Origin: Moniliella sp. 'wahieum'
Taxonomy: Eukaryota
Direction of reading: 5' to 3'
DNA length: 64,000 nucleotides
NCBI GenBank assembly: GCA_003971905.1
Contig: RSEE01000015.1
Location: 124,001 to 188,000, forward strand
Shown here: piece by piece, positions 1,806-63,660 of the stretch
Layout of the letters: the number at the start of each line of letters is the position of its first letter
How positions within the stretch are numbered: the stretch's first letter is position 1
Position numbers and translations under genes: made by a program
Notes under the pieces: generated by a model
Told to the model about the DNA's origin: nothing
What the model saw: only the letters and a program-made list of their open reading frames with translations
The model's database searches: none

Positions 1806-2276
1806 CGTACGTTCAACCCGCGCTCCGCTCGGGGCAGAGCATGTTCCACCCAACAGCGCGCACGCCGCCAGACGCTGCCCCTTGCCCCGCACCATCCAGA
1901 TCCTGGACTGCCCCCACCCCCTGTCGTTGGGCCTGTGTCACATGTCACATGTCACATTCTATAACTAGTAACTGCCCCTTAATTGAAGCTTCCAAGATGA
2001 TCTGCCATCGACAGCTACTTCTCCTGTACACGAGCTACACTGGGTCTCAGGGGCCCACGCTCAAAAACCAGCCAGTGTCGTAACCTGTCGTAACCGGCGT
2101 CATGGGCATATGGTTCCTGGTTCCTGCATCAACAGAGAGGCTAAGGCCAAAAATGTCGAGGGCAGCGAAAGTTCGCAAAGTTATATACCGCGACCGTCCG
2201 CAGCGCAGGTAATGAAAGAATCGCATACAGCTCGTTGGGAATAACAAACGAACACTACCGAACCGAAGCAGGTCGG

Positions 2277-3644
2277 TTACGGCTTGTAGCCAGCCTCGGC
2301 AAGCGACTCCTTGAGGCTTTGAAGAACGTGGTCAATGTCACTGCTGCGCGTGGTGGCCGAGAGACCCATATGACCAATGCGGAAGTACTTGTCCTTGCAC
2401 TCCTTGTGAAGCCCGGCAGCCACGACCACATTGCGGGCAGCCATGCGCGGCACCACATCGCCCGCGCCATAGCCCTCGGGGTACTTGACGGCCGTCATGC
2501 CGTTGGCACCATCCTTGATCCCGTCGGCGACGAGTTGGTCGAGTTTGAGCTCGTTCTTGACAAAGTTCTTGACCTTGGCCGAAGTGTCCTTGTGCAGTTG
2601 GAACCGCTGCTCGAGCGAGGGGACCCTTGGTGATCGTCTCGAAGCTCTGGTGCAACGCGTAGAGCAAGTTGGTCGGAGGCGTAGCAAAGTAGGCGGCATT
2701 GCCAGCTTCGTAGGCTTCATGATTGGCAGCCACTTTTTCCACGAAGCAAAGTAGGACGGGGGGGCACCTTGCGGTTTCAAACGCCTTGATGGCCTTGGGC
2801 GAGGCAGAGAGGAGCATCAGGCCCGGCGGGCACCCAATGCCCTTCTGCGATGCCGTCAGCACCACATCCACCCCCCACTCGTCTTGGCGGATCTCCTCGC
2901 TGCCTACGCTGCACACGCCATCCAGGGCAAAGATGGTGTCGGGAGAGACACGCTTGACCACCTCGGCAATCCCCTTGGCGTCGCTCAACACACCAGTCGA
3001 GGTATCGACATGGGTCGCGGTGACAAGCTTGTACTTCTTTTGCTTCAGAGCTTCCTCGATCTGAGCCAACGTCGGCTTGGAACCGACGGCGCGCCAATCT
3101 GGTCCACCTTGGCACCGTACGTTTCAAGGCATTCGGCAAAGCTGTCGCCAAAGTAGCCCGAATTGATGACCAGCGCATTCTCCCAGGCTCAACCACGTTC
3201 GCCGCAACATGGTCCCAGCCCAGTGCCCGAACCCGAGGTAATGATGGGCTGGGCCGAAGGTGCAAAGAGGATCTGGCGGAACATGCGGATACAGTCGCCC
3301 AGAATCGGGACGAATTCGGGCGAGGTGTGGCTCATGGAAGGGTGCGCATTGGCGTAGAGGACTTCGTCTGCGACCTCGATAGGGCCAGGGATGACGAGGA
3401 GTTGTGGGCTTCTTGGTGGAAGGCGGACATGGCGGGAGCGTACGTCTGCAGGCGGCGGACAGGCAGCAAGGCACGGGAGGGGAGAGTCTGGTGGGGAAGA
3501 GGGAGAATGCGATGTTAGGGGGCGTGGTGCCAACAGGGAGGAGGGGGGGGGAGGGGGGCAGAAGGCGAGCGTACGCACCACTGGGGCGGAGGCGGAGGCG
3601 GAGGCAGAACGAAGGAGGAAGCTAGGGAGCGTCCTCGGGAGCAT
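2277..3644 (-). CDS. AGX1: Alanine-glyoxylate aminotransferase (class V PLP enzyme) with a spliced N-terminal mitochondrial presequence; intron 3488-3578
   Basis: Motifs LLVIPGPIEV, HVDTSTGVL, ALDGVCSVG, DVVLTASQKG (PLP lysine) and YFRIGHMG across frameshifted ORFs. Intron GTGCGT...CTAAC...CAG joins ATG 3644 in frame to ATG 3430 (MSAF). Confidence 0.92.
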
Positions 3645-4282
3645 GCGCAGGAAGGCTGGGGCGGAGGAGGAGGAGGGGAAGAGAAGAAGCCGAAGGGAGG
3701 TGCCCAATGCGCCGTAAGGCGGCTGCTGCCGCGCTCACTCACATCGACAGATGCAGGATGCATGATGTGGTGAGCGATGATCGTGATCCATCGGCATCAC
3801 CCTAATCGGCCACCGGGACCCAGGGGCCGGGAACCGGGCCGAAGCTGCCGCACGGGCGCGGTGCCCGCCCCCTGCATGCAACACGGCTGTGCACGCACAC
3901 AGGCCCCAAGCCCCACAAGTCCACAAGTCCGCAACCCCGGCCCGCCAACGCCGATCCGAAGGGGATATGTCCAGTCACGTGCATCGCGGCCCACGTGACT
4001 CGCCATGTGTGGCACACCAAGTCCACTCCAACCAACTCCAAGAGTGCAGCACAGTGTATGTAAGTTCTTTTTGCGTTCATTACGGTTCGTCCCAAGAACG
4101 AGTCGACAAAATGGGGGCGCAAGACTCGACAGCGGGTATATGCAATCAAACCGAGTCTAAGCAGACGCGAACAGAGCAACAAAAGAGGGTACAAGCAGGT
4201 ACAAGAGAAAGGATGCAGAAGAAGAACGAAATAGATAGATAGGCTAGCAGCTCGGAGGGAGCTGCCGTTGCAGGCGCGGGCG

Positions 4283-7689: not shown

Positions 7690-8625
7690 GGGCCGAGTGG
7701 TGAGGGGCAGGGACCAAAGGGTGCTGATGTGAAGGTGGTGGTGGTGATGGGGCAGACAGACAAGACACGGACGAGGGCCGACGAAGAAAAACGCGTGCAA
7801 GGGCGCTTGGTGCGTCACTGGTTACTATTAATTGCGACCGCTGACTCTCGTGACTGGGCGCTTTGGCCAAGCGACCCAAGCGACAGAGCGGGTGACTGGG
7901 CGGTGATCCGTGACTGCCCCACCGCGACTATGTGCATCTAGAGACTGGCGCCGTGCTGACGGCGCACAGCGGCCGGCGGCGGCAGCGTGGGCTCTGGGGC
8001 AGTGTGCTGAGGCCTGCGGTGGTCCGCCGGCGGGGGCAGGCCACTGGCGCTGTGCCGTGTTGGCCCGACGTTTGTGGGGAAAGCCAGGGAGGATCCACCC
8101 GCGACAGAGGAGCCTGCTCGCCTGCTCGCCTGCTGCCTGCCGCCGCCTGCCGCCTCGCGCCTCTGCCTCAAAGCCCAGGAGCCATGGCCGCATGCTGCCT
8201 CCGTGCGGCGCCCATGCCTGCCCCCCCGAGCTCGTCTGTGCCGACACACTGGTGCCGTGCCCGCACGCGAACGCCCACCGCACCATGGCACACCACACGT
8301 CGCGTTTCGCCTCTGCCACCGGTCACCAGTCGACAGTCGCCCCCCGCCCTGCAAGTGCTGTCAACACCAACCCAGTAGCAAATCCCAACACTAGCGCCGT
8401 GCTGTGCAAACGCTTGGCGCGGGCGGCTGGGTCCAATACGCGGCAACATGCGACACCCAACATAAATACTCAGGATTCAGTACTGACTCATACTCAGTAC
8501 TCAGACCGAGTCTACCGAGGACGCTGTTGGGTATACACTGTCGATATATCTGTCCCGTCCAACTTGGAGATCTGCACGTACGGGTGCACCGGCAACAGGA
8601 GATCCTCTTTTCAAGCAGTATATAA

Positions 8626-9025
8626 TGTAACATCGTCCCTCATTGCGACGGGGTGGCTGGCTTCCCAGGCGGAGACCTTCCCTGCCCATTGGAGACAAGA
8701 CTCACGGAGGACTGAACGCGTTTCAGATCCAAAGTCCAAGGCTCACTGGCGTGAACGCAGGAGGGTCGTGAATGAGATGTTTTTTGCTGTACGTCGAGCA
8801 GAGCCTGAGCAGAGCGGTCTGCGAACAGAGGTTGCGTGTGTAGGGCCTGGACGGGAAAGCGGGGAGATCCGATGGGCGAGGGAGGGAGCGAGCTGATCGG
8901 AAGGTGTTTCTTCTAGAAGTGGAGTGCCCAGAAGAAGGGTGAAAGTGAAAGAATCCGAGAAGCGGTAGCGACGATAAGGAAGTGGAGGTGGCTGTGCATG
9001 GCGGCTCAGTCGTCGCCCCGTGACA
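8626..9025. mobile_element. Solo LTR (family A, copy 1)
   Basis: TGTAAC...GTGACA termini. Clearly homologous to 17835-18159 (shared gctggcttcccaggcggagacctt, agacaagactcacggagg, cgatgggcgagggaggg), and its 3' end matches 20120-20188. No TSD seen. Confidence 0.65.
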
Positions 9026-10622: not shown

Positions 10623-11571
10623 TCAAGCCGTAGCCTTGCCCTCACCAGGCTCGTTCGAAGCCTCGCCGGGCGGCAAAGACCGGTCAGCAAACAAGGAAGC
10701 CTTGGCAGAGAACAAGCCAAAGCGCTCGTAGTCCACGGACGAGATGTTGTAGACGTGGTACGGAAGCAGAACATGCTTCCCGAGTAGGTCCAAAACGCCG
10801 TAGTACACTTGCTCACTGTCCGGGGCAATGTTGTTTCCGCCCGAAGAGACGCCCCAAGCAATGATGTACACGATGCCAAACCACCAAACGCAATGCTCAT
10901 GGGCAGGTATGCCCAGTACACATCCTTGCCCGCCTTCTTAGCCGCAAGGAGAGCCGGGCCAAAGAGAACCCAGTACACCCATGTCAGCCGCAAAGACCAG
11001 CACGAACCAACCCACTTGTACGAGCTGGGCGTCAAAGCACCAAATAGTGACAGCGCCACCACCACTGTCTCAATAAGATGGTCATAAAAAGGGTAGAGAG
11101 GGGAACAGGCGACGCGAGCAGGATCGCCAAAAAATGAAAGGCGTCGAGACGGCCAGTCAATGTACCGAGAGAGCCTGAAGAGGAATCGAGCTGGAGGGTG
11201 AGCATACAGAATTCAATAAGGTGAATGATTACGAAACGTACCAGATTGAACGGGTGGCATCATTGTGCAATCCGTTGCCGTGTCCAGTCCAGGAGCCGGA
11301 TCGGAACTCGACAGTGACGGGAACGGCACCTAGGTTGGACGCAATGGCAAACCAGTTGAGGTGTTGCACGCAAGGGCTGCAACGATAAGATAGTGGAACG
11401 TCCGCTTCCCCGTGCCTGTTGCAAAGGAAGTGTAGGCGAGGGTGAACAGAAAGACCAGCATGGACACAGCGAAGATCGCCCATGAAAAGTCCGACCCCTG
11501 TACGTGTTGGTCACGTTAGCAGAGGCAGGGTTCGTGAGAACCGGACTTGATCCAGGGATGTGGGAGGGCAT
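10623..11571 (-). CDS. Fungal microbial rhodopsin/opsin, CarO-like (copy 1); intron 11175-11241
   Basis: Reconstructed across indels: GSDFSWAIF, PVTVEFRSGSW, RYIDWAVSTPFIFLA, SSYKW, GGNNIAPDSEQVYYGVLDLLGK (helix-G DxxxK), DYERFGL. Confidence 0.88.
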
Positions 11572-14500
11572 GTTTGGTAAGATGCGACCGAACGAAAGGC
11601 GGACACGGAAGGAATGATCAGATGGTGGAAGGGGAACTCCTTTTGCGGGACGGCGTTGATCAGGGGCGTCGGCTTAAAAGGAAATCCCAACATACCTCAG
11701 TAGGTATCGATGAATAAGTAGATGCAGTTCACGGTTTACGCGTTACGAGTTGCGCCTCCTCAGGCCTCGGGCCTCAGATCTATACAACGCATGTGGGTGT
11801 ATGTACATCTTTTTTTCGCGCCATGTGGATCAGTCCCTCGCAGGATCGATGATCGAGAGGCTGTGGGTGGTAGCGAACATCCCTTTGCTCTGGGTCTCAC
11901 ATCCGTATACCATCTGGCATCCTCTGGCAGTCCCAGAGCCATGCCACGAACATCAGAGCGCAGGACGGATGTCGAATTATGTCGGCGTGATGACTTCGAT
12001 GACTCCTACCGATTGGCACCCATCGATGTTGTGTTGCGGTGAAAAATACATGATGCGCATGATATGATCGAGATGTGGCTTGGCGACTCCCCCCGTTCAG
12101 AAAGATGCACAGCACAACACCCGTTCGTTGACCGGACTCAGCATGCACATCGTTCGTTGAACGTTGATTACTATACGAGACGTTTTGGGGGCCAAGAATA
12201 CGGGATGTCTCGTACGCAAAGTGTTGTCGCATTATTATATGGCACCGCGCAGTGCTCTGCAGATGGCGTTGGCATACATATGGTGCATGATGCATGACAT
12301 GCATATGACATGCGAAGCTTGAAGCCCTTTTCGCACGGGTCTCCCGCGCTGTAGCTTCACAGACAAAGACGGGGAGCTGGACGCCACAGGGGATTTCCTA
12401 TTTTGGCGTAGCATAATTCGCACGAATGCCACTGTGTGAGGATGTGCCGTTCATGCTGTCATCTCGATTTTGTCAGGCATGCAGGCCTGAGCCTCAGGCC
12501 TCCGACCCTGGGAAAGAGGCAGAGGTGGGGCCCTCGCATTTGTCGGCCTGATGGGGACGAGTCTCACACATTGTGTGTGCGAGTGGGGACGGCGCCCCCC
12601 GTTGACGGTCGCCTTTGTCATACTTTCCGTCAAGTACACCCAACGAAGCTGGCTCCAGAGCAGCACCACAAAAATAGCATCTAGTGCTGCGCAAACACAA
12701 AACAGCATGTCTTGAAGCTTGATCGGATTTCATCGACCCATCACACAAAAAATGAATGTTTTCTCACTACTTGTGGTGTTGTGAGCTGAGGGCCTGAGTC
12801 TCAAGACTTGGTGGCTGCGAGAGTGGGAGCCTGGACGTGATATGAGCGCAGGGTTCCTTTATCCAATGTGCGCAGGCCTTCCGGTGCGTTTTACGAACGC
12901 AGAGGAGTTCAACGATGTTAAATTCGATTCAATATTTAGGCAAACAAAGGTGTGCTCTTCACCTCTACGTTCGACATGGGCAGAACCGAGGAAATTGATA
13001 ACAAGTGATGGATGCTCGTTGGCTCTCATCTCATGCATCATTCACATCGTGCATCATGTCGCTGTCACATGTCACATGTCACACGGGCCGGGATATGAGG
13101 CCGAGGCCATATGAGGAGTGCGACTGGCTGTTCCGAGAAGACGGTTGAAAACGCTGTGGCGCGGTCAATATCACTGTCATCTATCGCAGGCCGGGTAGAT
13201 GCCACATGTCACATGTCACAGGTCACATGTCACGCCACTTTGGCTGTCCACCCAGAACCGAGAGCGGCAGGAGGCGGCAGGGGATGGCGCCGGATAAGGT
13301 CGGGCCGAAAACGCTCACTGTCCCACCACCCTTGACGTCACACAGTTGACGTGGGTTGCCGGTTATTAGGCGCTAGGCGTTGGTCGGCGCTCTTGCCTGC
13401 TCTTGCGGCTTGGCAGCGAACCGGAGCCGAACGAGGCTGCGCGTGGGACTACTGAGTACTGACTAGTGGCTGGTGAGTAGCTTGACTAGTGACTAGTAGT
13501 CTGCACGCCAACGTTCCATATATCATAGCCCAAACATCACACGTCCCCTTTTGCCTCCGCTTCTCGCAGGTGGGCGCTACGTTTTGGTGTCCGATCCATC
13601 TACAGATCCCTCCCCTACCGGCCACATCCTGCCACACCCCTGCCCCCTTTTGTGGAGGCTCTGCCAATGATTCATCATTCATGATTTAATGACATGAATG
13701 ACACACATCGTTTCTCGCCGCTCTCCTTGGATTGAAAAATGCAGCCGCCCGCTCCCGTCTTGTTCCCGTCCAGACCCGTCTCCTGTCCTCCTTTTGAACG
13801 TCCCAAAGCGTATTGAATTCACAGTCCATATGTTTCCTATCGTCTCCTCAGACCGTTGGACCGAGGCTTCAATTCAATGGCATTATTATCGACTCTTCAG
13901 GTCGCACACTATGTCAGCACTTTTTTCTAGTAACTAATTCCTCATTTTTGGCTGTAGACCGAAGAAAGCCGCGAGCACACCCACCAGCGCACGTGCTGTA
14001 CACATATGGCGAAGGAGACCGAATGCATGGAAGAAATCGAATGCTTGACGAATTGACCTCTTTTGTCTCCGTCGAAAGCACGGTACTCGACAGCTTTTGT
14101 GAAGAAGCTTTTTAAGCGCGCGCCCCACACCTCCTAAGGCCTCATTGGCCTCATTGCATCTAAAAAATCCGGCCATCGGCGTCGAGGCTGGGGGCTGGGG
14201 GTGTACCAGACCATAGTCAGTGCTGCGTGCTGCGCGCTGAGTTCAGCTTCAGCACTGAGCAGCGCTGAGCATACTCAGTCTGAGAGTACTCAACTCAGCG
14301 TTCAACTAACACTGAGTACTGAGTCTCAGTCACTCACTATTCATGCTGAGTCTGCGCAAAAAGCGCCTCCCCCGCAGGCGGCTGTCCTGTGTTGAAAAAA
14401 AAGTCTCCGCACACACCCCGCATGCTTGTCCCCTGACATGTGACACGCCAGGCATGTGACACTGTCTTGCCACATATCACACGTCCATGAGGCAGCGCTC

Positions 14501-15846
14501 AGCGTGAGCGCAGCACTCATATTGCGCTGGCCTTCAAGCTGTACTACTAGTTACTAGTTACTAGCTGCATGCAGCAGACCTCAGATCCTCCAATCTCACA
14601 GGGTATAACACAAACTGGCGTGATCTCTGTTGGTGCGCGGAGAGGACATTCAGGCCCAGGATCATATAGGGCAGCTGATGATGCTCAAGAGGATGCTCAT
14701 GATGCTGATGCCCCTGCTGATGGTCATGCTGTGATGCTCATGTCTGAGGTCTGGATCTGACGACCTTTCCCATCCGCTAACCGGGGGCGCATGTGCCCAC
14801 TCCGGTCCCTGTGGATCCGATGCGGATCAGCCTGGAGCCGCGGCGCGGAACTTGTGACGTTGACTGGTTGTCCACAGAAAGTGCGTATAAGGTGCATGAA
14901 GAGTCCTGTGAATCTTCATCACATTGTTCATGTTCATCCATACGCCCTTCGGCTTCGCGGCGCACCGGTGCATCACCTCTCAGATATCAGTGTTTCCCCA
15001 GGGCCTGCGCTACCTTGCTCAAGCGCAGCGCTACATGAGAATGGGCCTGAGGATCTGAGCTCACAAAGGCCTACAGCCCATCCCGATCCAACCCGCAATG
15101 GAGGCAAGAGTGGCCCGAATGCTTGTTGCGCTCGGCCGGCGCTTCCCTGTGAGAGGATCGACGCTCAGAACGTAGTGAAGAGCGACTATTAGTGACTAGG
15201 GAACATTGTTGACCCATTGGGCAATGCTAGGCCTGCTACGCCCTGCCGGCCTGCTCCCGGGACCGAGGTTGGAAAGTGAAGTCTGTGTGAAGGCGCGGCA
15301 AGAAAGTCGGGGCAGAAGCAGCTACTGAGTAATGAGCGCGCGGAGAGCACCCATCCTCACTGGGCCCGAGGCCCGAGCGCTTTATGGTCGGTTTGCGCTT
15401 GGCACTACTGTATCCATCGCCGAGGCGCCTGTGAGGAAGAACATACTGAAGCTCCGTGCCCGGCTCTCCCATCACGCACGTCCTGCCAGGATCCTGGCTG
15501 TAAGCAGGGCGGAGCCACCCGACGGCACCGAGTTACTACGGTATCTATGGTCCAGCTGCCCCTCTGCCCGCCAGGACCTACCGTTCTCTCTGCCTCGGCC
15601 TGCGCACGACTGATGGTAGACTAGCCAACACAGGCCCACATTAATTGGGTCCATGGGATATATATATTTGCCCCCTCCTCCGTCCCATCCAGCCCATCCC
15701 TCCATACACCGGCTTTCGTCGCGTTTCCCTCTACCCCTATCAACTCAGCAACCCAGCCAACTCCTCTCGCTGCCTTCCCCACCCGTTCTTCACCACACCG
15801 CCCTTCCGCGCCTTTTTTTTTCTTTCCTTCAGCTGCCTACACTACA

Positions 15847-19236: not shown

Positions 19237-20188
19237 TGTGAGTAAGAGTCAGCGCTCAGCATGCCAGACAACTTGCCGCTGATATTTTCCGCGGAGAGCC
19301 AGGAAAGGACTGTGGACTTATTAACGGTACGAAGCTTCGTATCCGCGGCGCCCAGTCTTGGTAGAATCCCACATCTACTGCGCCCAACAGCTCGCATTAT
19401 GGGCAGAACAGGCCGCTCTTTACCTCTTACTACTGTAGATTTTCCCTTTCTTCTGTTGATGCCTGTTCTGATGTTAGTTACACTATGTAAGCAGCACTGT
19501 CTGAGGCTTGCTGTGGCGGTGATCCTCACCGCCCAAAACCCACGTCTTCCCCCGACTTTCCTCCTCACCCTTACGTTTACCAATATACGACTTACGTCGA
19601 GACTGCAAGCTTCGGTTACTATCAGTAGCGCTTGCTCTTCTTTAGGACTCTATCTGTTCCCGCCTACTAAAGCGTACCGAGTGTGGTAACGCCGAGAGGA
19701 ACAGAGTAACTTCGGAGATCCTGGACCCTTTCAATTGGTCTTACGACCTACGTACGGGGCTCCTACCTCGGAGGGTTTGAGCTGCGGCCTTTGCACGCAG
19801 GCAGCCACCCAAACTAGAGGGTCTCTCCCTTGCCTCTACACCCGCTCAGTTCAACCAGGATCTGAAGCAGGACCTAACGTACGTAACTCTAATGCCATGT
19901 CCAAGGGCTTTCACCCATAAATTCCGGTTGGGGTCGGGCTCCGTCTCGGGGCTCGCCCATGACATGTGTGTGTTTTGGATTTTATTAGACGAGTCAAGTG
20001 ACTAGTGACTATAGTGAGCGGAGAAGAGACGATTGTTGTGGGTTTTATAGATACTAGGCCGAGAATCCGAGTCACGATGGCGAAAGATAGGGAACTTGAG
20101 TAGTGATAGGAAGAGAAGCCGAGAAGCGAGAGCGACGATAAGGAAGTGGAGGTGACTGTGTAAAGCGACTTATCGTCGCTCCACGACA
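19237..20188. mobile_element. Cluster of LTR-like remnants
   Basis: Abutting TG...CA segments. 20120-20188 (cgagaagcg..agcgacgataaggaagtggaggtg...tcgtcgc..ca) matches the end of LTR 8626-9025. Confidence 0.4.
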
Positions 20189-36046: not shown

Positions 36047-38975
36047 GCGTGCAGAGGGGGGCGGGCAAGAGAGAATGGGGCGGGGACAGGAAGCAGGGGT
36101 GCGATGGATCAGGCAGGGGTAGTGGTTTGGTGGTGGTGCACAGGAGAGGAAGAACACGAGGGAAAAGTGCGAGTTCTGATCCTCTGAATGGCGCTGGACA
36201 GTCCAAATTGGAGAAGAATCGTACTGACGCGACACTGGGGCCGTGCTCGTTATATACACGCGTTGGAATTCACGCCCTTTCCCCCGCAGCCTACACTCCG
36301 CCCTGCGCCGCCGTGCCTGCGCCGCAAGCTATGTCCGCCTGGCACCATGCCAGTGTTGTCCTACGCATCCTCCCCGCCGGCAGAGCAGGAGTGTGTCTGG
36401 GTGACCAATGGCTAATGACTGCCCCCCTGTGTGGCTGCGGCTTTGCTTCTGGGTGAGCGATGATCGATTCTGATTGAGCCCCAGGGGCTTTTCTGGACAA
36501 GACTCGGTACCATAGCAGTGTTGCTATCATAGGAGCGTTGCAGCCGGTATATGATAGGAGGGGCGGCTGGGGGAGCGCAGCGCCCTCGGCCGACATTTTC
36601 TCACCTGGTGCTTCCAAATCCCATCCGCCGCCATATGGGCGTCACCCCCGTTCTTTGCCCCACACACCTAATACTGTTACACCGGTCGCGACAAGCTTCA
36701 AGTTTATGGGTTATGCCCCCGTATGATGGCACGCCAGCCCCCCCAAAACAACACACGTATGACAATCACGCATGTGTATTGGTACACACTGAGAGCCACA
36801 CAGCTGTAGCGGGTTTATGTCCTTTTTTATAGCTTTTTGCATGGCCCCAGTCGAAGCTCAGCCTGAGCGCTCACCGGCAATAAACGGCGCTAAACACGCT
36901 AACACATATCGAGCCCTCGAAAGAAGAAGACCACGATGACTGTGTCCTTAATTCACCGTTCGGTATATCCATAAAAAACCTTCCACATCCGGCTGAAGCG
37001 GCCTCACCGGTCACCGGCCTGAGGCCTGAAGCTAGCATCGATCAGCCTGAGAGACCCCGACAACGGGAATGTCCAGATTAAATAGCCAGCACTGGGCACC
37101 CCACAACTCATTCTGTGTACAGCAAAACACCCTTGCCTTTCTAACTCTATCACCAAGATCATCAAGGTGAGTCAGCGCCGTCGATCTTCATCAGCTTCAT
37201 CATCCATTCACCCGTATATCTCTCTCAAAAGCATTTAGCTGGCGGACCTTGAGCGTTTTTGCTGTGTGTATATATAGCTTGCGTGCCATTGATGTAATTG
37301 GCGGAAATCCACCTACGTGATGGACTTTCTCCTCTGAGGCCTGAGGCCTGACATGCAATCGGTCTTTGGCTGGAAGAACGGGAAAAGAACAGGATGACAT
37401 GGACAAAACTCTTCAAGAACCGCGGGGAAACAAGAACAGGATGACATTGGCTACTATTGGTGTTTCTCTCCGTGTCACGCACCTGTCACGTCTTTGTCTT
37501 CGCAATCTCATATCTCTGCTATTCACACGCATATCACATGTCATAAAAGCATGCATTAGCTTCAATGGGCACATAGGTACTATGAGTAGGGTCAAAAAAG
37601 TCAGAGATCTGTTGCACTGTATTATCTGTGCGCAGAAGCCGCAAGGAGAAAGAGAAACGAAGACGCGTGTGATCCATGTGATCATCAGGTGTATTGGGAG
37701 CTACCCTGGGACAAAACTGTAGTGGAAAAGAACATATACAGGCCCCGGTGATCCGGTGATTGGAAGTCGAACCCACACACAGGCTCGCCTGTAAAGCATT
37801 ATACATGTGTAACTCTTCGCATATAGCGACTAGATTGATCACGGACGCCTCTAAGGACGATTCTATACCAACTATGAGTATACGTAGTGGCGATGCATAA
37901 GTGGCTTGAAAAGCCGGCGACACTGCCAATTGAGGTTCATTGAGTCCCAAACCCAGTTCTTGTTGACCATTATTAGGTTTGCCCCCCAAAGCGCATATAA
38001 AAGGTCATGACCAGTTGCCCAACTCATTACATGTAGTTACAGGTCTCTCAGAGCTCAGGTCCCCAAGCGGACTTACAACTATATAACTACACATCGATCT
38101 CTCATCCCACTTTTGAGTAATCGCCGATTCTCAGAACACTGGCCGCGATATGTATCCAAAGAAGATATCGGTGTGGGCTACTGTTGTTCTATTATCAGAC
38201 AATACCTTTTCTCTGTCAGGACATTTCGATGATCAAGGCCTTTCAATCAATTTTGCGGTGCTACTGGCTTACTAGCTTTTCCGCCCCCAGTTTCCCTATA
38301 GCAGAGGGTAAGCATGTAGCACCGCTCGTAAAAGGGGTACTCTTACGCCTGACATCAGAGATGTGAACGCGAACGTTGAATGGACAGTGAGGGGTGAGGT
38401 GAGTCTTTGCTCTTTTGATGAGGGGAGGATCGCAGATCTCGTTTTTCCCTTTTGCATCCACTCGTTTGTTTGGCCACTCCTTTTTATATGTCCTGCCTCT
38501 ATTGCCCGTGACCCATGTTCTCTGCCCCTAACGGAGGAGTTTCGCCTTCGTTGTGGACGCTGGACGTATACAGCGAAAATAGCGACTGCGTGGCTGCCGA
38601 CGAAAGACCGTAAGACACTTCGCTTATTGGCTCGGCTTCTCTGCACGTGCTGGCTGCCGCCGGTAACCCTAGCAGGCGTTGGCTTGGCTGCTGCCTCCGT
38701 GCCCCCAGTTTCATGCGCATCACCCGTCGCCCAGCACTCATGCATTCGTTGCCCGCCACCGCTCCCCCAGTGCTCCCACTGGGGACATGGGACTTGGTTT
38801 GGCGTGCGAGGCGAACGTTCGCTTGTTCCTCCTCCAGACAGGATCCAATAACTTCTCACCCACTTCCCCACGTTTGCGCGCCGTTTGTCACCGTCTCATC
38901 GATCTCTCATCCCTCTCCGCCGCATCTCTCACCACCTGCTCCCGCGCGCGCTCCTGCCGCTGCTCCCACCCTACC

Positions 38976-42672: not shown

Positions 42673-44135
42673 GGTGAATGCAGTACCTGGTGGTGGTGGC
42701 AAGCCAAGCCGAGGCGGGCCAAGGCAGCGTTGTTTTATGCCTGCGCAGAAGGTTGCTGCGGCAGAAAAATTATCAGCGCCAGCAGAAGGGCAGTGTAGCC
42801 TGCGTCCAGGAGCTGGAGTATGCCCCCGCACCCTGGCAGTCTTCATCCCCTCGGGAGCAGCCCACACTGGGGTAGTGCGGGATCCACGTGAAGTGCCCGA
42901 AGCCCCGGGAAAAAAGGTGGAAGACAGGCGCAGTGCGGTCCTCGGGGGGGTTGGAGGGCGCTGTCATGCATTCCGCTCTGGCCATCCACTGTGCTTGGGT
43001 ACCGGCAGTCTTCGGCTGTCGTTCCGCCCGCCTCGCATGCATCACACACGTGTTCCGCCCAGCGCCCATCGCGCATCGAACCCATCCACGCAAACTGGGG
43101 AGCAAAGTTTTTCTGTGCACAATGGCCGGTGCGATCTGCGGTCCTCGATGTCCACCTCCTCTCCCCACTAAACCGTGACGTGAATGACGTAGGAGACGCA
43201 TCGTGTCACGATCGATGATCGAGATTCGAACGGATTGTGGGTGGGTTGAACGTTGAAGTTCAACGTTCAATGTTTAGCGACCACTCCCCCGTGAACCAGT
43301 GGGTCTCACACCTGCATTCCTGCCAGCATCAGGCTCCTCTTCTATCGCCAGCCTGATCGATCGAGCAGATGGTCTCGCCAGCTGATGCGCGGATGGAGCC
43401 AACGAAGGCGAGGGGGGACGGGGGACGGGATGCGTAACACACTGGAACAAATATATGGTTCGAAAGGACACGGCGGTTTTACACGCTGCTGCGAGTCCGC
43501 ACGCCCCCCCCCGTAAACCCACTCGCGCTCCATTCCGTTTGTAAACGAATGCATGGCGGGAACCGCTGGCTCCTGCCTCGGGCAATGCTATTGACCTCCT
43601 GATCAAGAATCAGTGCCTGGACGTGGCCTGTCAGCCAAGGCTGCCGGCCAGGAACGTTGAACGGGGAGAGAGCCCTCTTAAGGCAAAGACAGCTCTTCTG
43701 TTGTGTCTCCATGCACACTTTGCATTGGGTTCCGACTACTCATACGCCCTTCCTGTCAATTGGAGCGATAGTCCCAAGCTTCAGACTAGTAGTGTGCAAG
43801 GTAAACCAAGGACATTCACGCCAATCAGATCGAAAGTGACGTTAGTGAGGAAGAATGAAAAAAAATGCTAGGTGTGACGGGCAACGGGGTGCGACACAAA
43901 TGACGGCCAGCAGGACGATCAACAAACTGTGGTACAGGTTGGGCTCGTCCGACAAAAGATTATTACAGAACAGAAACGACGCGGAAGGGGGAGGTGTAAT
44001 TGGTTGCCGTTACCCAACCCACGGGCCCCAATACGAAGCGTCGACACTGCTATTCGACGCAACGAAAACCGGCTGGTATACTGGGGAAATGGGGAGGTCG
44101 AGCAAAGCGTGAGGATGGGTGCAATCGCCGCTGCC

Positions 44136-44806: not shown

Positions 44807-46474
44807 GGTAAAGGAGCAGGGCGGGGATCAAAGAGGTGAAAGGATGCTGTAGAACGAGGACGGGCAGGTACGAGTGGGAAGAGAGCCGGGGGTGGTGGCA
44901 ATGACAAGGCGCAGAAGGGGCCTGAGGGCTAGTGTCGTAGGATATGGGGGAGAGCAGACGACTTCCAGTTGCGGACGAAGAAGGGGGCAGTCTTATATGC
45001 AGAAGAATGAACCAGGCTCTGCCGGCCCATAGAACTGAGGCAGTGTGTGAGCCGGGTCTGCAGTAGGCGGGAGGGCTGCGCAGCGGATGGGGGCTGGTTT
45101 GCTGCTGGCTGGGACATTCCTACTCCGTACACAGTACTTGTGAGCACTCGGTCAGTAGTTCTGTGCTCAGCTTTCCGTCATGTTGCGTCACGCGTCACGC
45201 GTCACGAGCAGTCCGTCTACTACTGGTCGCGAGGGTCTGCAGAGATATGCGGGCGGGGGCTGGGAGAGTGCTGTGCCTGCTGTGTCTCCGAGGATGCTGA
45301 ACAAGTCGATCATTGCGATCACTGACGAGATGGATGCATGACGAATGTTAATGGTGTGGGACAGAGGGGATGGAGGGGATGGGCCCGGAGTCTGGGATGC
45401 AGCACAAACACGATGACGGCATGGCGGATGAACTGGCCCCCCGTGGCAAAAGGGCGGTGCTCCCCGTTCCACCTCCCTCTATTCGGGGGGAAGGCCGGGA
45501 AGGATGCGGGCACATGCAGCCGCATGTTGCGACAGCTTCGACGGCGGGACAGGCACCAGACTAGGCACCCCAGAGATATCCTGCCACCCCCGACGGCGAG
45601 TGTCGAGCCGGTGACTTGCGCCGTGCGAGCCCGAGCTAAGATCAAACTGCTTTAGAGCTGCAGCAGAAGCATCGATGATTGCATACTGATGATCGATGAT
45701 CGATGATCGAGATGATCGCGATGATCGCCCACGCGTCCGCCGGCCGCATTCTGGGGCGCTTGGCTGCATCAGGCGGTATCCTGGTGTGTCTAACGGCGCT
45801 GCTTATTGAACACTGGCTCAGTCCCGTGTCTACGCAGTGCAGCAGAGTGCAGCAGGCTTGTACGTCATTCAATATTCATCATGCATCATTAGCCATTGCC
45901 ATTCCTGCTCGGGAAGGAACCTGTCGGGTGTGAACGTGTGAACGCTAATTGGGAACCAGCGTCATGTGCATCGTGCGCATCGTATGATGGGCCGTGTTAC
46001 GTTTCTGCCGTGCTCGGCAATCACTAGTCACTAGTCACTCCTTCTGCATTCTGTCTGATCAAAATTCCCACTGGTTGTCCAAGCGTTGAAGAACGTACGC
46101 TGTTGAGATGCCTCTATACCTTGTTGTACCCGTAGCAACCCGTAGCACTTTTGATCCTGATGCATGATGCATGGTGCGTAGTCGACGGTCATTATCACTG
46201 ATCGATACGAATATACACAAGCTCACCAATCACCCTCTCTCTGTGTGGAGTTCGGGTTCGGAAAAGGGCACGGGGAATCTACCTGCACGGGCCACCGGTC
46301 CCAATCAATGGGCGGGCGCTGTGGCAGCGTCTACAATAAGCAAGAGAAGAGGTGGCGGCACAATCCCCGGTCGGCCGCTGAGAGAGGGGCAGCTCAGCTC
46401 TCGCTGAGCGCTGGCCAAACGCCCAATAACAAAACACAGCCACAGCCTCTCTGCGGCTCCTCTAACGTATAACA

Positions 46475-46802
46475 TGTTAGAGGGTACTGCTAGGGTTCTC
46501 CTGCGCGGCCCTCAATGGATCGGTGACGCTCGCCTAGCCGAGCGGAAGCGTTCCGCTCGCAGGCCGCGCACGCCCTGCTCGCTCCATCTCCCTTCTCTCT
46601 CTCCTTTCTCCTTCCCTTCAAACGTTGCTTGAAGACTTGTGGCTCACCACTTTGCTGTGAGAAGGCACAGCCCGGGGGAAATAGTGAGGAAAGAAGAGAC
46701 TCGAATGGGATTCGAACCCATGTCATCGCCTATTGGCCAGGGATGCGTTACCACTACGCTATCGAGCCGGGATAAGAGCAGCTGCAGGATCACAGTCTAA
46801 CA
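46475..46802. mobile_element. 328-bp solo LTR-like element containing a tRNA-like sequence
   Basis: Perfect 7-bp inverted termini TGTTAGA...TCTAACA. An internal block (acgttgcttgaagactt..ggctcaccactttgc) recurs at about 46869-46900 in an adjacent fragment ending ...ATAACA. Confidence 0.65.
46697..46768 (-). tRNA. tRNA-like/pseudo-tRNA, anticodon ambiguous (CCA or GCC)
   Basis: GGCTCGA/TCGAGTC acceptor stem, GCGT/ACGC D stem, ATGGG-TTCGAAT-CCCAT T arm. The anticodon arm is imperfect and no T-run terminator follows. Confidence 0.55.
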
Positions 46803-47843
46803 TTTGCCTTCACGCCTTGTCTGAAGGTACGCCTCTGCTTCCTTTCTTGACCTGTTGCTCACAATGAGACGTTGCTTGAAGACTTGGCTCACCACTTTGC
46901 CTTCACGCCTTGTCTGAAGGCTGCTTCGCAGCTGATCCATAGGATCGCGAGTGCTCCCAAGTCGCACTCTAGCATAACAGAGGTTGTAGAAAACGATGCC
47001 GATCTGCGCCCTCCCCTCGTGATATAAGCAACAGAAGGGAAGCCCATGTTCGGTCGCTGCCGGTTGCATGCGCTCTCTCACCCTGATACACACCATCCTG
47101 GATAATTGACTAGGGCCCCCTTTATAGGTAATCGAGTGTGCCCACAACACAAAGTGCTTTTGTTGAATGTTGCATGTTAGTCCTCAGGTACTCACTATAT
47201 CTCAGTGTATATAGTCAGAATCTCAGATCTAGTCAGACGACCTGTAGGGGAAATCTGCTATCTGTGGCTAGCTAGAGTGACTAGTGACTAGTGAGTGCCT
47301 CTAGTCCCAGTGAATAAGTGACTGCACTCAGTCTGAGTTCCGAGTTCTGATGCATGGTGCATGATGCATGATGCATGATGCATGAGTACATGAGTGCTCG
47401 GAGTACTGAGTTACTAGTTACTACTGATATTAATACCCGCGTACCTAACGAGCATCATTCTATCAGGCCTTGGGCTGAGGCGGAGGCGCTGAGAGGTGAG
47501 GCAAGCCTCGGCCTCGACATGCTCCACCCCGTTAGAGAGACGAGCGGGTTGAAGACGTTGAAGCTCGGATGGGCGACAGTCTTGTGCGAGGCGGCCCCGT
47601 TCCGCCTCTGTTCCGCCCCTGTGCCGCTCCTCCCTGTGGCGCCTCCGGCGGCCTCCCCCCTGACTGCATCCCCACCATCTCCCCTTTGCCTTGCTCGCCT
47701 CCCACAAGTATTTGGCAACACCACTAGCCGCACTCATCGTACCACCCATGCTGTGGGCATGCGGGGAACCGCCGGGCACCGCCCTGGCCAATGGGAGGCT
47801 GAAGATGCAATATTGCAAGTTGCGATCCAACTATGGGACGCTT

Positions 47844-48101
47844 GGTCGTCGCTACGCCGACAAAAGGGCGCGGCTGGAGAGACTGGCTCGCTTATGCCGT
47901 CATGCCCAACACTCGCGCCATTGCCCACCACCATCGCCACCACGCGGAACGACTTGGGGATGGAATGTGCGACTGGTGCGGATGGGAAGCCACGCGACGC
48001 TTTCTTGGCCGGATCCTGCATGACCGCCTCCATCTGCCTCGCTGATTCTCCTGGGTCAGGGGCAACGGCGGAAGAAAGCCCCAGGCCAGTTGCCGGCGAG
48101 T
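47844..48101 (+). repeat. About 255-bp direct repeat, copy 1 (copy 2 at 52079-52334)
   Basis: Long near-identical blocks, e.g. gcgcggctggagagactggctcgctt and catgaccgcctccatctgcctcgctgattctcctgggtcagg. Confidence 0.9.
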
Positions 48102-48227
48102 CAACTCAGTCCCGCACCCGAGCCGTATGTCTCCTTCTCTTGCTTTGCCCCTCCCCGTCCTCTGACCTTTTCTTTTTAGCAACGTTGCCCCAGTTGGGGT
48201 AACAACGGCCACACTTTCGGTAGTTGT

Positions 48228-49907: not shown

Positions 49908-51464
49908 AGGTACTGGGGCGCATACATGTTCGTCAGAACATGGGCGCTCTTCCAAGGCCAACCCACGCTTCTCCTTATGTTGCGGTCAGGGTATGTTTCA
50001 ACTCTCCTCTCCTGTATTGTTCCACCGATAACCCTTCCATTGACCAGTAGCCTTCTCTTTTTGATTGCCAAGTATGACCGTCGCTTGGGGCTATGGCGTT
50101 CATCAACAAAGGACAAGCAGAACGGAGACAACCTACCTCCACAAGTGGAGCTGCGACGGCGCACGATCCGTCGATCTGGGCCGGTTTGGCCCCCGTGGGA
50201 ATGCAGGCATTGGCGCTCATCGAAGGGCCAGCGGGCAAACGGATGATTTGCGGGCGGAAGTGGGGTAGGCCTGGAGATGGCTACCTGCCGTTGGAATGCC
50301 TGTGCCACAGCGACGATGGCGGCGTGGCGCTGAGCCTCCTGTTGGGCCCACCAGGTTGAGGAGCCGTGCAGGTCCCAGCGACCGAGCTGGTTGTGGCTGG
50401 GATCGTCGTGCTCATTGGCGTCCCCATCGTTTGACGAGGGCAGCCCGGTCGTCGGCCGCGGGAGCGGATGGCGGGAGGTCAAGAGGAGGGGTGCGGGTCC
50501 GATTGGGCCAAGAGCTGGAGGAGCCAGTCGGCCGGGGTGGTGTCGAGCCAGTCGGTTGCAGCTGCGTATACAGCTGGCGAACGACGACGGCGCCAACGGC
50601 AACGGCCAGGCGCGCACGAACGGTGCGGGTGTTGGGCAGCGATGGGCGTCCCAGCTGGCACAGGACGAGAGGATGCATCTGAGCTACTTCAAGTGAGGAT
50701 GGACAAGATGAAATGTGTTTTTGCGCCCTTTATCGCAGACGCCTGGCTGCTGGGATGCGGGGTGGCCTGTGACGGATGATGATGATCGATGATGGATGGT
50801 GTCACATGGGGCCCAGGTTGAATTCTCCCCGGCGTCTGGCCACTCGCCCGCAAGAATCCTGTTTCGGTATGTGTCTGACATTCTTCACCGCGGGGGGTGG
50901 AGTAGGGCCTGAGGCCGGAGGGCAGTGCGCTCCCCGCCGTTGGGGTTGAAGACGTCAGGCCGCACGGCAGCAGTCGAGGCAGCATAGTGTGCTCAAGCCG
51001 AGGCAGCGGCCTGAGGCCTGAGGGCAGTGTGCTCCCCCGCCGTTGGGGCAATATTGCCGCAGCAGCGGGGGGGCGGGGGCATAAATAACCCCGGACGGGT
51101 GCAAAACTTCTTGTCTCCCTCCCATCACCTTGCTTCTCGAACCGCTCACCGAGTACCGAAATGCCCCTCCCGCCTCTGACCGAGTTCCAGTTCACCTTCC
51201 GCCTCTCTCCTCTGACCACGAGCCCGGGTCTGCCATCGAACTACACCCCCCGGCTACTGGCTGGCGCCCATCATTCCCATCCGAGCATCCGAACTTCCAA
51301 GTTGGGCACAATCCCAACGCCCAGCCAGGCCCTTCGATTCTGCGCAAAAGAAGCCGAAGGCGGCTGAGGAGCGGGTGCTGGCGCCAGCGGTGCCCCGGGC
51401 CAGGTTCGATGTCAACACGGCCGAGCCTCGCGAGACCGTGCGCAAGCGTCGCCATGGGCCCGTG

Positions 51465-51620
51465 GTGGTGGAGGTGCATTGCCCAGAGGTGGCGATGCAG
51501 GACGCGTGGGACATGACAGAGGAGGAGGATTGCCCATCGGTGTTGATGCAGGACGCATGGGACATGGTGGAGGAGGTGCATTGCCCAGAGGTGGCAATGG
51601 TGGACGCATGGGACCTGGAC
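51465..51620 (+). repeat. 51-bp tandem repeat x3
   Basis: Units ...gagg..cattgccca...tg..gatg..ggacgc.tgggac.tg; read as 17-aa repeats in ORF 51375-51626. Confidence 0.85.
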
Positions 51621-52078
51621 CAATGACTGCCTTTGTTTTTGTTTTGTTTTCGTCTTCGTTTCGTTGTTGTGTTGATCGTTTAAGAAAATGAGATTGGTTT
51701 AAAACTACAATGTGGTTGGTATATAGTATTGCATAGCAGGATGTGAGGCCAAGGGTATGGAAAACGGACGTCTGGGTAGATGAAGTGGATAGTAACGCTG
51801 GAGAGAAGGGATCCAGGAATGCCCGTGGGGATGAAGTTGCGTGGTATGTCCCCGCTGTGGGGGATGAGAGAGGAGGCATTGAATATCATCCTCGACTGGA
51901 TCTCTTGATGCGAGGGGGGACGCACCCACTTACTAGGAGTGCGACGTGACACGTGCGATCACATGTGACATGAGCTGTGACACGCGCTGTGACATGGGAT
52001 GTGACATGGGACATGTGACATGTGACGCATCCCCATGGGGAAACGGGAGTTGAAATGTGCAATGCGAGTCCGCAGCGC

Positions 52079-52334
52079 GGTCGTCGGTACGCCGACAAAA
52101 GAGCGCGGCTGGAGAGACTGGCTCGCTTGTGCCGTCATGCCCAACACTCGCGCCATTGCCCACCATCATCGCCGCCACGCGGAACGACTTGGGGATGGAA
52201 TGTGCGACCGGTGTGGATGGGAAGCCAGGCGACGCTTTTTTGCGGCCCCTGCATGACCGCCTCCATCTGCCTCGCTGATTCTCCTGGGTCAGGCGCAACG
52301 GTGGATGAAAGCCCCATCCCAGTTGCCGCCGAGT
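52079..52334 (+). repeat. About 255-bp direct repeat, copy 2
   Basis: Homologous to 47844-48101. Confidence 0.9.
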
Positions 52335-52599
52335 GAACAAGCCCCCGTTCATGGTACCACAAGGCCCAAGTCAAAAAGGACCACTGGGCCACATGTCCAC
52401 ATACCCAACCCAGACTTCCAAAAGGTACGTCGAACCGCACAGGCCAAACCTTTCTGGTTGGCGATTGTAACGTGCTAGATCAAGGCTATATGTGTGTCTG
52501 ATCGAGAGAAAACGTGTTTGATTCTGTACGCGCAGACCGGAAGAAGATCGATCGCAGCCGCAAACGGAGGAGAATGGAGCTTGTCCCTCCTCGACCTTG

Positions 52600-58012: not shown

Positions 58013-58134
58013 ACTGGGCGGTGGGGTAGGAAGCAACAGACAGGCGCGCCACCCCGTGCAATCCGGGAAGGAGAGGTAGAAGCAACAGCACCCGGTGGGA
58101 AGAGCCAGGACCGGGGTGGTTGGGTAGGTGGGGA

Positions 58135-59720: not shown

Positions 59721-59764
59721 GGCCACAGCGGAGAGCGATGGGGTGGGGGGTGGAGATGGCAGTG

Positions 59765-59820
59765 GCGGTGATGGTGATGGTGACGGTGGTGATGGTGATG
59801 GTGACGGTGGTGATGGTGGG
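59765..59820. repeat. GGT/GAT/GAC trinucleotide microsatellite
   Basis: ggtgatggtgatggtgacggtggtgat... Confidence 0.85.
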
Positions 59821-61560: not shown

Positions 61561-61795
61561 CATCAGTAAAATTCTACCTCTTTTGGCAATATCGTCGATC
61601 AGTCCATTTGATTCACAGAGGGGGGAGGGAGCGGGCAAAGCGCCGGAAATATGCGTAGCAGAGATTGCGAGGTACATATGAAGCAGGGAAGCCAAGGAGG
61701 AGAAACAATGCATCCACGCATCAACACATGAGACCAAACTGATTGTGTGATGCATCCCAGGTGAACCCACGAGGGGAGGGAGGGTGCGGTTCGAT

Positions 61796-62760
61796 TTAGA
61801 ATTGATGATCAAGGCCGTCGTTGGCAACTACGCGGTCGAAGGAATTGTTCGAGGCAGTCTTGGGTGGCACATCGGCACTCCTACCGCCTTGCAGCTCGCG
61901 GTCCAATGCATCGCCCGACCCGGCCGTCCATCCGCGCGCATTACGGATGCTGTCGCTCGAATTGGACAAGGACGAACGGGAAAAGCCATATCGTTCAGCA
62001 TACTGTTGTTGCAACGGCGCCTTCTTCTTGCTTTTGCGTGGCTTGTCCCCCCGCCGTCGAGTCCGCTGGTGGAGCCACTGCCGCCAGGCACGTTCGGCTG
62101 CAACTCCTCCTCGCTTTGAATCCACGCGCCCGTCACGCTGTCCCTCCTGCCTGCCGGGGCAGGATTGCGAGCATTTTTGCTGCGAGCAAACCGGTCCTCC
62201 TGCTTTTCGGGGGCCAGGTCATCGTCCCAGTCGCGGCCGTTGGGCGCGTTGGGGTCCGTGTTCCACGGCGCGGGGGGCAAGCCGGTAGCCACCGGATGCT
62301 CCCGCCTCGTCTCGCCCGACACGGGATCGACCACCACTTCTTCATTTTCCCAGCGCTGGCGGTCGTAATGCGAGGTGCCACCCACCATACCATCGTCGTC
62401 GTATCGGCCAGCCCATTGGCGCTTTTGGGCCTTGTCGCGGCGGTAGTCCTTGATCAAGCCGTTGCGTACGGCCCAGGCGGGCGAATGGTTCTTGTTCTTG
62501 TTGTTGCGGATGTTTTGGATCCAAAAGTTGTGGATGTGGCCGGGGATGTAGCCGCAGCAGGTGAGGATGACATTGATGAAGAAGTCAAGGCCAATCCCAA
62601 AGCGCACGGCGACCGCAAGCGGTGGCAACAGCCAGCCACACAGAATGATCAGACCAGTGTACCAATGGCGGCGCTTCATTGGGTTGGCCGCTCGCTTGCC
62701 GCGGCGGTAGTTGACGGTCTGGCGCGTGGGATACGCAGGGGCAGGGCGCCCTTCAGACAT
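61796..62760 (-). CDS. Pmp3/UPF0057 proteolipid-domain protein with a long hydrophilic tail
   Basis: LLPPLAVAVRFGIGLDFFINVILTCCGYIPGHIHNFW; the tail ends GLDHQF after a frameshift. Confidence 0.85.
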
Positions 62761-63660
62761 GGCGGGAAGCGTAGGGGAAGATGGTGGCTGAGGGAAGGTG
62801 GGCAGAGCGGAAAAAGATGGGATCGAACGCAGGCTGGCTAAGTTGTCGCAAACTCACATGGTTGCTATCTGCGGGTGGATGTTGTGGCCCAATGGCCACC
62901 GGCGCCAAGCTAGGCCTCCGCGGCGCAAGCCCGGCCGCCCTCGGAGCGCATCCACGATCAGAAAAGGTGCCTGGCAGTGCCTGGCAGGGCCCATGCCATG
63001 CGCCCTCGCCTTCTGACACACGCCCCGCACGGGGGGCAGTGCTGGTGCCCAACGGTGGGCAGCCTATCACCCAGCGGCCACACTGCGCTGGTGCAGGCCC
63101 ATGCATCAACTCGGTTTCGGCGATAGTTGACGCGTGATGAACGACGCATGTGCACTCGGCTGCCGCGATGGCAAGGAAGAACGCGTCATCGAGCGCTAAG
63201 ATTGGGGCCGCCAGCTGCGGCCAGGCGCCGGCCTGCACTGCACGGGGCAGTGTCATGCATGTCATACATCATGCATCATGCACCTGCCTGCATGGGCTGC
63301 GCTGGGCTGCGGCAGGCTACGGCCGGGCCTACTGCGGCTGCGCCCCCAGCAGCGGCAGCACGGGGGCAGCCGAGCGCGTGGCTGCGCAGTCCGACCCCCC
63401 GCCGCGTACGCTTCAAGGAAGCTTCAAGATAGATGGAAGGCCTGAAACCAATGGCCCTATTTTAGTCGCCGCAAAGAAAGCGGCACGCCGGCAGCCTTCA
63501 TGCACTTCATGCATCTGTTCGGGCCGACAGCCGAAGGGCGTCGTAGCACGCGCGCCAACGGAAGCCCACTCTCTAGTCTTCCCAGCTGTGTTCTTTGCCA
63601 TAGCAACACGCCAATTGTGGGGCAAACGCAGCCTATGACGCACATGCTCCCCTCCCCTCG

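Follow-up and report, generated by a model that had tools for sequence, protein, structure and literature searches.

In the model developed for triplet repeats, hairpin-forming tandem repeats expand by slippage or by misprocessing of flaps, and in vitro DNA polymerases extend short palindromic repeats by "hairpin elongation". Odd-length target duplications with G or C at their centre have a parallel in the target consensus of phage Mu. Survey abstracts define microsatellites as units of 1-6 nucleotides (nt). Passages of the transposon literature describe 7-base-pair (bp) duplications for the hAT7 and Kyakuja elements of basidiomycetes (PMC12730594), targets of the form C|TNA|G for fungal NuwaII elements and TWA for PIF elements (PMC4482050), and, for Galileo, duplications of 7 bp whose consensus is the interrupted palindrome GTAGTAC (PMC2775673). 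In the passages available from a report on Fusarium mitochondrial DNA (PMC7218506), "palindromic microsatellites" are (A)n-(T)n palindromes, unlike the repeats treated here. These are heptamer arrays in a 64-kilobase (kb) stretch of eukaryotic DNA (contig RSEE01000015.1, positions 124,001 to 188,000; hereafter the window, numbered from its first letter), and they are short tandem repeats with hairpin potential that follow an apparently undescribed motif rule. A full-text literature search for this grammar found no description of it; such a rule would be missed because simple-repeat surveys usually stop at 6-nt units.

Maximal perfect period-7 tandems were collected at a threshold of at least 14 nt in the primary scan and at least 12 nt in an extended scan, with 100 dinucleotide-preserving shuffles of the window as the null. 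At the 14-nt threshold the window yielded 35 such tandems; the shuffles averaged 3.72 and never exceeded 8. In 22 of the 35 the unit is a 6-bp palindrome with one added base (0.30 on average in the shuffles, at most 2), the palindrome having the form A-NNNN-T in all 22, and in 20 of the 35 arrays A-NNNN-T is followed by G or C (mean 0.03, maximum 1), so that palindromic heptamers are enriched over shuffled DNA as the preliminary description of this stretch would have it. All 16 sites cited in that description contain the motif given for them, the coordinates of the maximal perfect runs agreeing with the cited ones to within 2 nt; four of them (12314, 14311, 14493 and 37004) are missing from the output of Tandem Repeats Finder and were read directly. 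Its 11 palindromes are likewise all present, and AATATT and AGATCT raise the number to 13, each of these two occurring in a single run of 12 nt, a length at which by our own calculation about 1-2 such runs are expected by chance. Period 7, with 35 arrays, stands out from its neighbours, periods 8 and 9, which have 5 and 6. Short perfect tandem duplications exceed the shuffles at every period from 6 to 12 (57 versus 13.0 at period 6, 5 versus 0.83 at period 8, 6 versus 0.23 at period 9, 6 versus 0.1 at period 10) without any symmetry rule, and the 13 non-palindromic period-7 arrays fit this general background of symmetry-free short tandem duplications. The palindromic heptamer pattern is confirmed as real and lies far beyond chance.

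The extended scan gave 50 palindrome-plus-one runs of at least 12 nt, of which 45 have the outer pair A...T; the other outer pairs (G-NNNN-C, C-NNNN-G and T-NNNN-A) account for 5 runs, where about 5 are expected by chance on our own estimate. As cores the 45 arrays have 13 different 4-bp palindromes out of 16 possible ones, each one to seven times and at roughly even frequency, and in this sense the grammar does conserve symmetry and period and not sequence, as had been claimed. A spacer that is "almost always G/C" is found in 41 of the 45; four arrays have A or T, among them that at 14545-14564, with T. As these data show, each unit joins T-(G/C)-A to a 4-bp palindrome of any sequence; seen as a whole, it is a 7-bp interrupted palindrome with S (G or C) at its centre, identical on both strands except at S. 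Units are arranged head to tail in 1.7 to 4 copies, as in the following arrays.

1936..1957: ACATGT+C, 3.1 copies, 22 nt, perfect
8491..8504: AGTACT+C, 2 copies, 14 nt
12284..12297: ATGCAT+G, 2 copies, 14 nt
12314-12325: AAGCTT+G, a 12-nt run (1.7 copies) just after the preceding ATGCAT array
13063..13083: ACATGT+C, 3 copies, 21 nt
13203..13220: ACATGT+C, 18 nt, perfect, within an imperfect five-unit array at 13199-13233
13483..13497: ACTAGT+G, 2.1 copies, terminating a degenerate seven-unit stretch at 13447-13497 that includes AGTACT units
14311..14324: AGTACT+G, 2 copies, 14 nt
14493..14504: AGCGCT+C, 12 nt (1.7 copies)
14545..14564: ACTAGT+T, 2.9 copies, 20 nt, one of the four A/T-spacer arrays
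19997..20011: ACTAGT+G, 2.1 copies
37004..37029: ACCGGT+C, 2 copies, adjoining AGGCCT+G, 2 copies, with a 2-nt overlap
37334..37351: AGGCCT+G, 2.6 copies, 18 nt
43245..43270: 25-nt palindrome composed of two opposed 13-nt AACGTT runs, the first of TGA type and the second of TCA type
45185..45206: ACGCGT+C, 3.1 copies, 22 nt
45688..45710: ATCGAT+G, 3.3 copies, 23 nt
45711..45728: perfect period-9 array, ATCGCGAT+G, 2 copies, in the same grammar (TGA plus the 6-bp palindrome TCGCGA)
46021..46039: ACTAGT+C, 2.7 copies, 19 nt
46158..46173: ATGCAT+G, 2.3 copies
47276..47294: ACTAGT+G, 2.7 copies, 19 nt
47358..47385: ATGCAT+G, 4 copies, 28 nt, the longest array
47409..47423: ACTAGT+T, 2.1 copies
51008..51023: AGGCCT+G, 2.3 copies
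52010..52026: ACATGT+G, 2.4 copies, terminating a degenerate ACATGT-rich stretch at 51961-52026
63267..63282: ATGCAT+C, 2.3 copies

The opposed form at 43245-43270 is the only one among the arrays of the window. The triplets are direct repeats: with a palindromic 4-mer between them, TGA is followed by TGA 47 times (both strands counted) and by TCA twice, and TCA by TGA 6 times. Among the 80 occurrences of TGA-N4-TGA, N4 is palindromic in 47, where the 1-in-16 share of palindromic 4-mers would give about 5 by our calculation; the 33 with a non-palindromic N4 fall within the range of counts at the remaining spacer lengths between N1 and N8 (21-52). Palindromes are also enriched in TGA-N6-TGA (5 of 48 versus about 0.75 calculated) and are not enriched in TGA-N2-TGA (8 of 26 versus about 6.5, likewise calculated). 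Several period-8 and period-9 arrays (37745, 45928, 47381, 14138, 37186 and 63496) consist of T-S-A, a 4-bp palindrome and 1-2 extra bases. Outside the arrays, single modules of T-S-A plus a 4-bp palindrome are not enriched in the window (169 versus about 196, the latter being our own derivation from an order-1 expectation of 242 scaled to the unmasked share of the window), nor are TGA-loop hairpins with non-palindromic arms; the signal therefore resides in the tandem duplication itself.

Palindromic arrays make up 11 of the 12 arrays of at least 17 nt and 11 of the 23 of 14-16 nt. A census of the 38 runs that contain T-S-A, a palindromic 4-mer and T-S-A again gave 3 runs of 10 nt, 2 of 11, 7 of 12, 6 of 13, 5 of 14, 2 of 15 and 3 of 16 nt, followed by 1 of 17, 2 of 18, 2 of 19, 1 of 21, 2 of 22, 1 of 23 and 1 of 28 nt. 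Lengths thus decay smoothly from 12 to 28 nt, without a peak at 10, 11, 14 or 21 nt. TGA-type and TCA-type arrays are intermixed inside single gaps between genes, and units within arrays carry uncompensated point changes, as at 13199-13233. Arrays with the same core have unrelated flanks, and self-BLAST revealed no larger repeat that carries them, from which it follows that same-core arrays arose independently. Dispersal by segmental duplication was rejected as no larger repeats span the arrays, and so was a reading of the arrays at 46016-46040 and 47275-47299 as two ends of one element, since they agree in only about 5 bases beyond the arrays themselves.

Other DNA was compared for the same rule. 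Metagenome contigs of very different composition (25-66% G+C) contain at least 120 stretches with three or more copies of TGACATG, and among the matches listed these arrays are often 22-30 nt and up to 63 nt long; the TGACATG heptamer repeat is widespread in nature. No metagenome locus among the matches listed carries several different cores, and in the 492.5 kb of metagenome DNA around these matches the full rule is followed by only 1 of 168 other period-7 arrays. Palindrome-plus-one arrays make up 16 of these 168 (9.5%, versus a calculated random share of 10.9%), compared with 22 of 35 in the window. In viral contigs, triple arrays were found at 17 loci for palindromic cores (CATG 3, CTAG 11, TGCA 2, GGCC 1) and at 35 loci for composition-matched non-palindromic controls (CAGT 15, CTGA 6, TACG 1, GCCG 13). 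Both control sets are imperfect, the metagenome set being seeded by one motif and the other being viral. A general advantage of palindromic heptamers is seen in neither; self-complementarity alone does not make heptamer arrays common, and the rule is lineage-specific and not a general property of DNA. That ordinary slippage would not be expected to produce such a grammar, as had been argued from the window alone, agrees with both comparisons.

According to a crude codon-usage score trained on Pfam-supported frames, 42 of the 45 arrays lie in noncoding-like DNA, although such DNA makes up only 36% of the window, which upholds the earlier statement that they lie outside coding regions and corresponds to about 1 array per 550 bp of noncoding-like DNA. 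Scarcity in coding DNA is expected regardless, because the 7-nt unit carries a stop codon. Of the gaps between genes, the divergent ones carry 31 arrays over a total of 9,966 bp, compared with 6 arrays over 6,669 bp of convergent and 5 over 4,775 bp of tandem gaps; the gap types come from crude gene models and strand assignments, and the arrays are clustered, hence not independent counts. The arrays are shown to lie mainly on the promoter side of genes, and two large divergent gaps hold most of those in divergent gaps.

11691..15702: array-rich gap of 4.0 kb with 16 arrays (12 nt or longer), flanked by diverging bacteriorhodopsin-like paralogues
44972..47444: array-rich divergent gap, 10 arrays in 2.5 kb
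46696-46768, minus strand: solitary transfer RNA gene, tRNA-Trp (CCA), in the middle of this second gap

The paralogues flanking the first and most array-rich gap, at 10686-11394 (minus strand) and 16028-16758 (plus strand), share 66% identity over 736 nt.

We tentatively prefer, as a possible reading that we would not yet call probable, that the arrays are lineage-specific self-complementary heptanucleotide micro-tandem repeats which grow by hairpin-assisted slippage with an added lineage-specific factor. Origin and growth would then lie in endogenous structure-assisted slippage during replication or repair, and the arrays would be neither transposon leftovers nor sites retained by selection for binding. 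Being repeated directly at a distance of 7 nt, the 4-bp palindrome would allow a strand to re-anneal with a shift of one unit; being also an inverted repeat, it would allow neighbouring units to fold together as a small hairpin (5-bp stem, T-S-A loop), which may protect the slipped loop or flap against removal, and the extra unit would be retained. Because of this double role, only palindromic 4-mers would qualify. Negative supercoiling between diverging promoters, for which the twin-domain model is the basis, could favour such hairpin structures, and the excess of arrays in divergent gaps would fit this.

The evidence for pairing is that complementarity is kept while sequence varies, as in hairpin repeats: free sequence with kept complementarity (13 cores; 47 of 80 palindromic N4) is a signature of base pairing, not of protein reading. 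Single strands of the arrays are predicted to fold into a 5-bp stem and a 3-nt T-S-A loop. The order of stem lengths, with 4 bp far ahead of 6 bp and 2 bp not enriched, behaves like a minimal hairpin, and the period-8 and period-9 variants with longer loops fit a small-hairpin process. Palindromic dominance among long arrays fits preferential growth, the smooth length decay and uncompensated point changes fit a microsatellite-like birth, growth and decay, and the mixed TGA and TCA orientation is as expected of a strand-symmetric process at the level of DNA. Short tandem repeats in general consist of perfect head-to-tail copies, which the arrays do, and choose their motifs by composition without regard to symmetry, which the arrays do not. 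A structural signal, offered earlier as the alternative to a transposon footprint, fits the self-complementarity better than the footprint does but leaves the constant T-G/C-A unexplained.

Several serious points weigh against hairpin-assisted slippage. It does not predict a constant T-G/C-A loop, in which G/C outnumbers A/T at the centre by 41 to 4, and G-NNNN-C, C-NNNN-G and T-NNNN-A palindromes should fold at least equally well, yet they occur only at chance level. The predicted hairpins of nine arrays are weak (-1.4 to -8.4 kcal/mol, z from +0.4 to -3.8) and mostly no better than those of shuffled sequences, the exception being a tenth folded sequence, the 25-nt palindrome at 43243-43272 (-10.7 kcal/mol, z -5.77). 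Nor can a two-unit hairpin explain the first duplication from a single copy. All array statistics come from one 64-kb window, and the dependence among clustered arrays bears on the gap counts. Finally, the rule is not general physics, and a lineage-specific factor must therefore be added to the slippage model.

The rival that survives best, unlikely as we take it to be, holds that the arrays are scars of a lineage-specific enzyme cutting both strands 7 bp apart around T-S-A, whether a transposase, another symmetric nuclease or a loop nickase. Each cut-and-fill, or each insertion and excision, would add one heptamer copy; in one variant T-S-A is nicked only when it is presented in a small hairpin. 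The strict period of 7, the constant pyrimidine-G/C-purine centre with its triplets in direct repeat, and the lineage-specificity of the rule in the metagenome and viral comparison all argue for such an enzyme. So does the preference of the arrays for promoter-side gaps, which many DNA transposons likewise favour. The passages on hAT7, Kyakuja, NuwaII, PIF and Galileo provide precedents for 7-bp duplications and T-N-A-centred targets, and a Helitron-like gene fragment shows that mobile DNA is present in the genome.

What stands against the enzyme begins with the elements themselves. A scan of the window for inverted ends flanked by 5-10 bp duplications, which elements without inverted ends would escape, gave only 2 chance-level 7-bp matches, neither of the grammar, while 45 arrays share the same 64 kb; inverted-end elements flanked by TGA or TCA as a 3-bp duplication were also not found in the window. 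A target-reading protein gives a preferred sequence and not 13 different internally complementary flanks. As to a target consensus the arrays are mixed: their centre is constant (T-G/C-A in 41 of 45), and their flanks share complementarity only. Because TGA-N4-TGA with a non-palindromic N4 is at background, there is no hidden pool of non-palindromic scars. A 7-bp target-duplication footprint would leave flanked element copies and a length peak at two target copies, neither of which is seen in the window, where the run lengths rise at neither 14 nor 21 nt. The 10- or 11-nt peak expected of a 3-bp duplication with leftover end bases is also absent (only 3 of 38 runs have 10 nt and 2 have 11 nt), and the few 10-nt runs together with 13 different 4-mers do not match a PIF/Harbinger-NuwaII footprint. 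Leftover transposon end bases, rejected as a source of the palindromes, would require about 13 families with different ends. Units of a different core adjoin arrays at 9 of 76 flanks, no more commonly than in offset controls (4-9), and the addition of new-core units at array ends was rejected as well. A further candidate was the copying of bases from break ends capped by a hairpin; it would convert TGA to TCA, a form that is rare (2 and 6 versus 47), and was rejected.

The transposon excision footprint proposed in the preliminary description, including its "4-nt cut filled in plus TGA", is thus not borne out: the search for transposons that it called for gave no inverted-end element with a grammar duplication or with TGA/TCA flanks in the window, and footprint-length peaks are lacking. 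Its wider notion of a process that repeatedly duplicates 7 bp agrees with the direct TGA repeats (47 versus 2 and 6). We consider it doubtful that an undescribed lineage enzyme, either a staggered cutter or a hairpin-loop nickase, writes 7-bp duplications at T-G/C-A-centred interrupted palindromes; if it did, the arrays would be a genome-wide mutational signature of that enzyme and a new way of generating tandem repeats.

It is improbable that the arrays are functional promoter elements under selection, either as sites for dimeric or repeat-reading factors or as unusual DNA structures shaping chromatin or transcription. Their concentration in noncoding-like DNA (42 of 45) and their density in divergent promoter gaps would agree with such a function, and some cores (for example ACGCGT and the ACGT core) presumably equal known fungal palindromic sites. 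The low coding presence is, however, expected anyway from the stop codon in the unit. A cluster of transcription-factor sites would show one core and enriched single sites; the 13 similarly frequent cores exclude one sequence-specific factor, which sustains the earlier view that the arrays do not derive from a single transcription-factor site, and single modules are not enriched (169 versus about 196). Random orientation and decay of the units through uncompensated changes speak against promoter function too, and a reader of TGA repeats is not supported because non-palindromic TGA-N4-TGA is not enriched. The weakest alternative, which attributes the pattern to chance, to scattered copies of a single repeat or to faulty assembly, can practically be set aside, given that the best of 100 shuffles had 2 palindromic arrays versus 22 observed, that same-core arrays have unrelated flanks without a larger repeat spanning them in self-BLAST, and that arrays of 12-28 nt are much below any read length.

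The window has about 57% G+C, and short introns interrupt its genes, which were called as Pfam matches on stop-to-stop open reading frames.

2341-3123, minus strand: class-V aminotransferase
16246-16842, plus strand: bacteriorhodopsin-like protein
29706-31896, plus strand: SLY1/Sec1
41009-42580, minus strand: eEF1A
49008-49904, plus strand: Helitron-like N-terminal domain

Further Pfam matches, recorded by name, are protein kinases, GTP cyclohydrolase I, RhoGAP, a PAK-type kinase with a p21-binding domain, a cytidylyltransferase, a MARVEL protein, TTC39/Iml2 and Pmp3. For the SLY1 exon, identity is about 50% to proteins of Ustilaginomycotina and other basidiomycetes, with Tilletiaria, Thecaphora and Sporisorium among the genera matched, and the eEF1A exon is 80-85% identical to those of many fungi; because of these identities the source lineage is a basidiomycete without a close relative in the protein collection compared. 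A homologue search with the TTC39 open reading frame gave no matches, and a protein atlas gave no indication of the taxon.

The Helitron-like open reading frame is enclosed by a 262-nt direct repeat (47844-48105 and 52079-52338, 92% identity, 4.2 kb apart), and heptamer arrays lie immediately upstream of both copies. Another repeat, of about 380 nt, is contiguous at 8648-9025; its second copy (17839-18131 plus 20103-20188) is interrupted by about 1.97 kb, with about 12-15 similar bases at both junctions, and has the appearance of an insertion accompanied by a long target duplication. Three tandems of longer period fall outside the heptamer grammar.

33926-33984: 12-nt unit, 4.9 copies, in coding-like DNA
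51470-51614: 51-nt unit, 2.8 copies
59751-59818: 21-nt unit, 3.2 copies, in coding-like DNA

The value of the finding depends on its genome-wide and cross-species extent. If genome-wide, it would be a rare case in which a repeat grammar (fixed loop, free paired stem, direct repetition) points to a molecular intermediate. With one array in roughly every 550 bp of noncoding DNA and a concentration at promoters, the arrays would form a large store of fast-changing length variation near genes. They could serve as genetic markers for the lineage and as a handle for finding the responsible factor, be it a repair defect, a nuclease or a transposase.

Among known systems, ordinary micro- and minisatellites resemble the arrays in being perfect, short and noncoding with a smooth length decay, and differ in motif choice, palindrome-plus-one units making up 22 of 35 arrays in the window versus 16 of 168 in metagenome DNA, close to the random share. 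The footprints of hAT7, Kyakuja and Galileo, as far as the cited passages describe them, share the 7-bp direct duplication, and basidiomycetes do have families that duplicate 7 bp; like GTAGTAC of Galileo, the unit is an interrupted-palindrome heptamer, and like C|TNA|G of NuwaII it has a T-N-A centre with complementary flanking bases. In those same passages, however, the targets of hAT7, Kyakuja, NuwaII, PIF and Galileo have a preferred sequence, whereas the flanks in the window are free but complementary. Unlike transposon footprints in general, the arrays reach 4 copies and show no length peaks, and the scans made of the window gave no flanked element copy. Hairpin-expanding repeats are matched by the head-to-tail arrangement with self-complementary strands, by the enrichment of self-pairing among long arrays and by predicted folds between neighbouring units. 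The arrays depart from them in that hairpin potential is insufficient, the rule not being seen as general in two unrelated DNA collections, and in the form of the repeat itself: arrays of only 2-4 units, each of 7 nt, in which T-G/C-A is fixed and the 4-bp palindrome is free.

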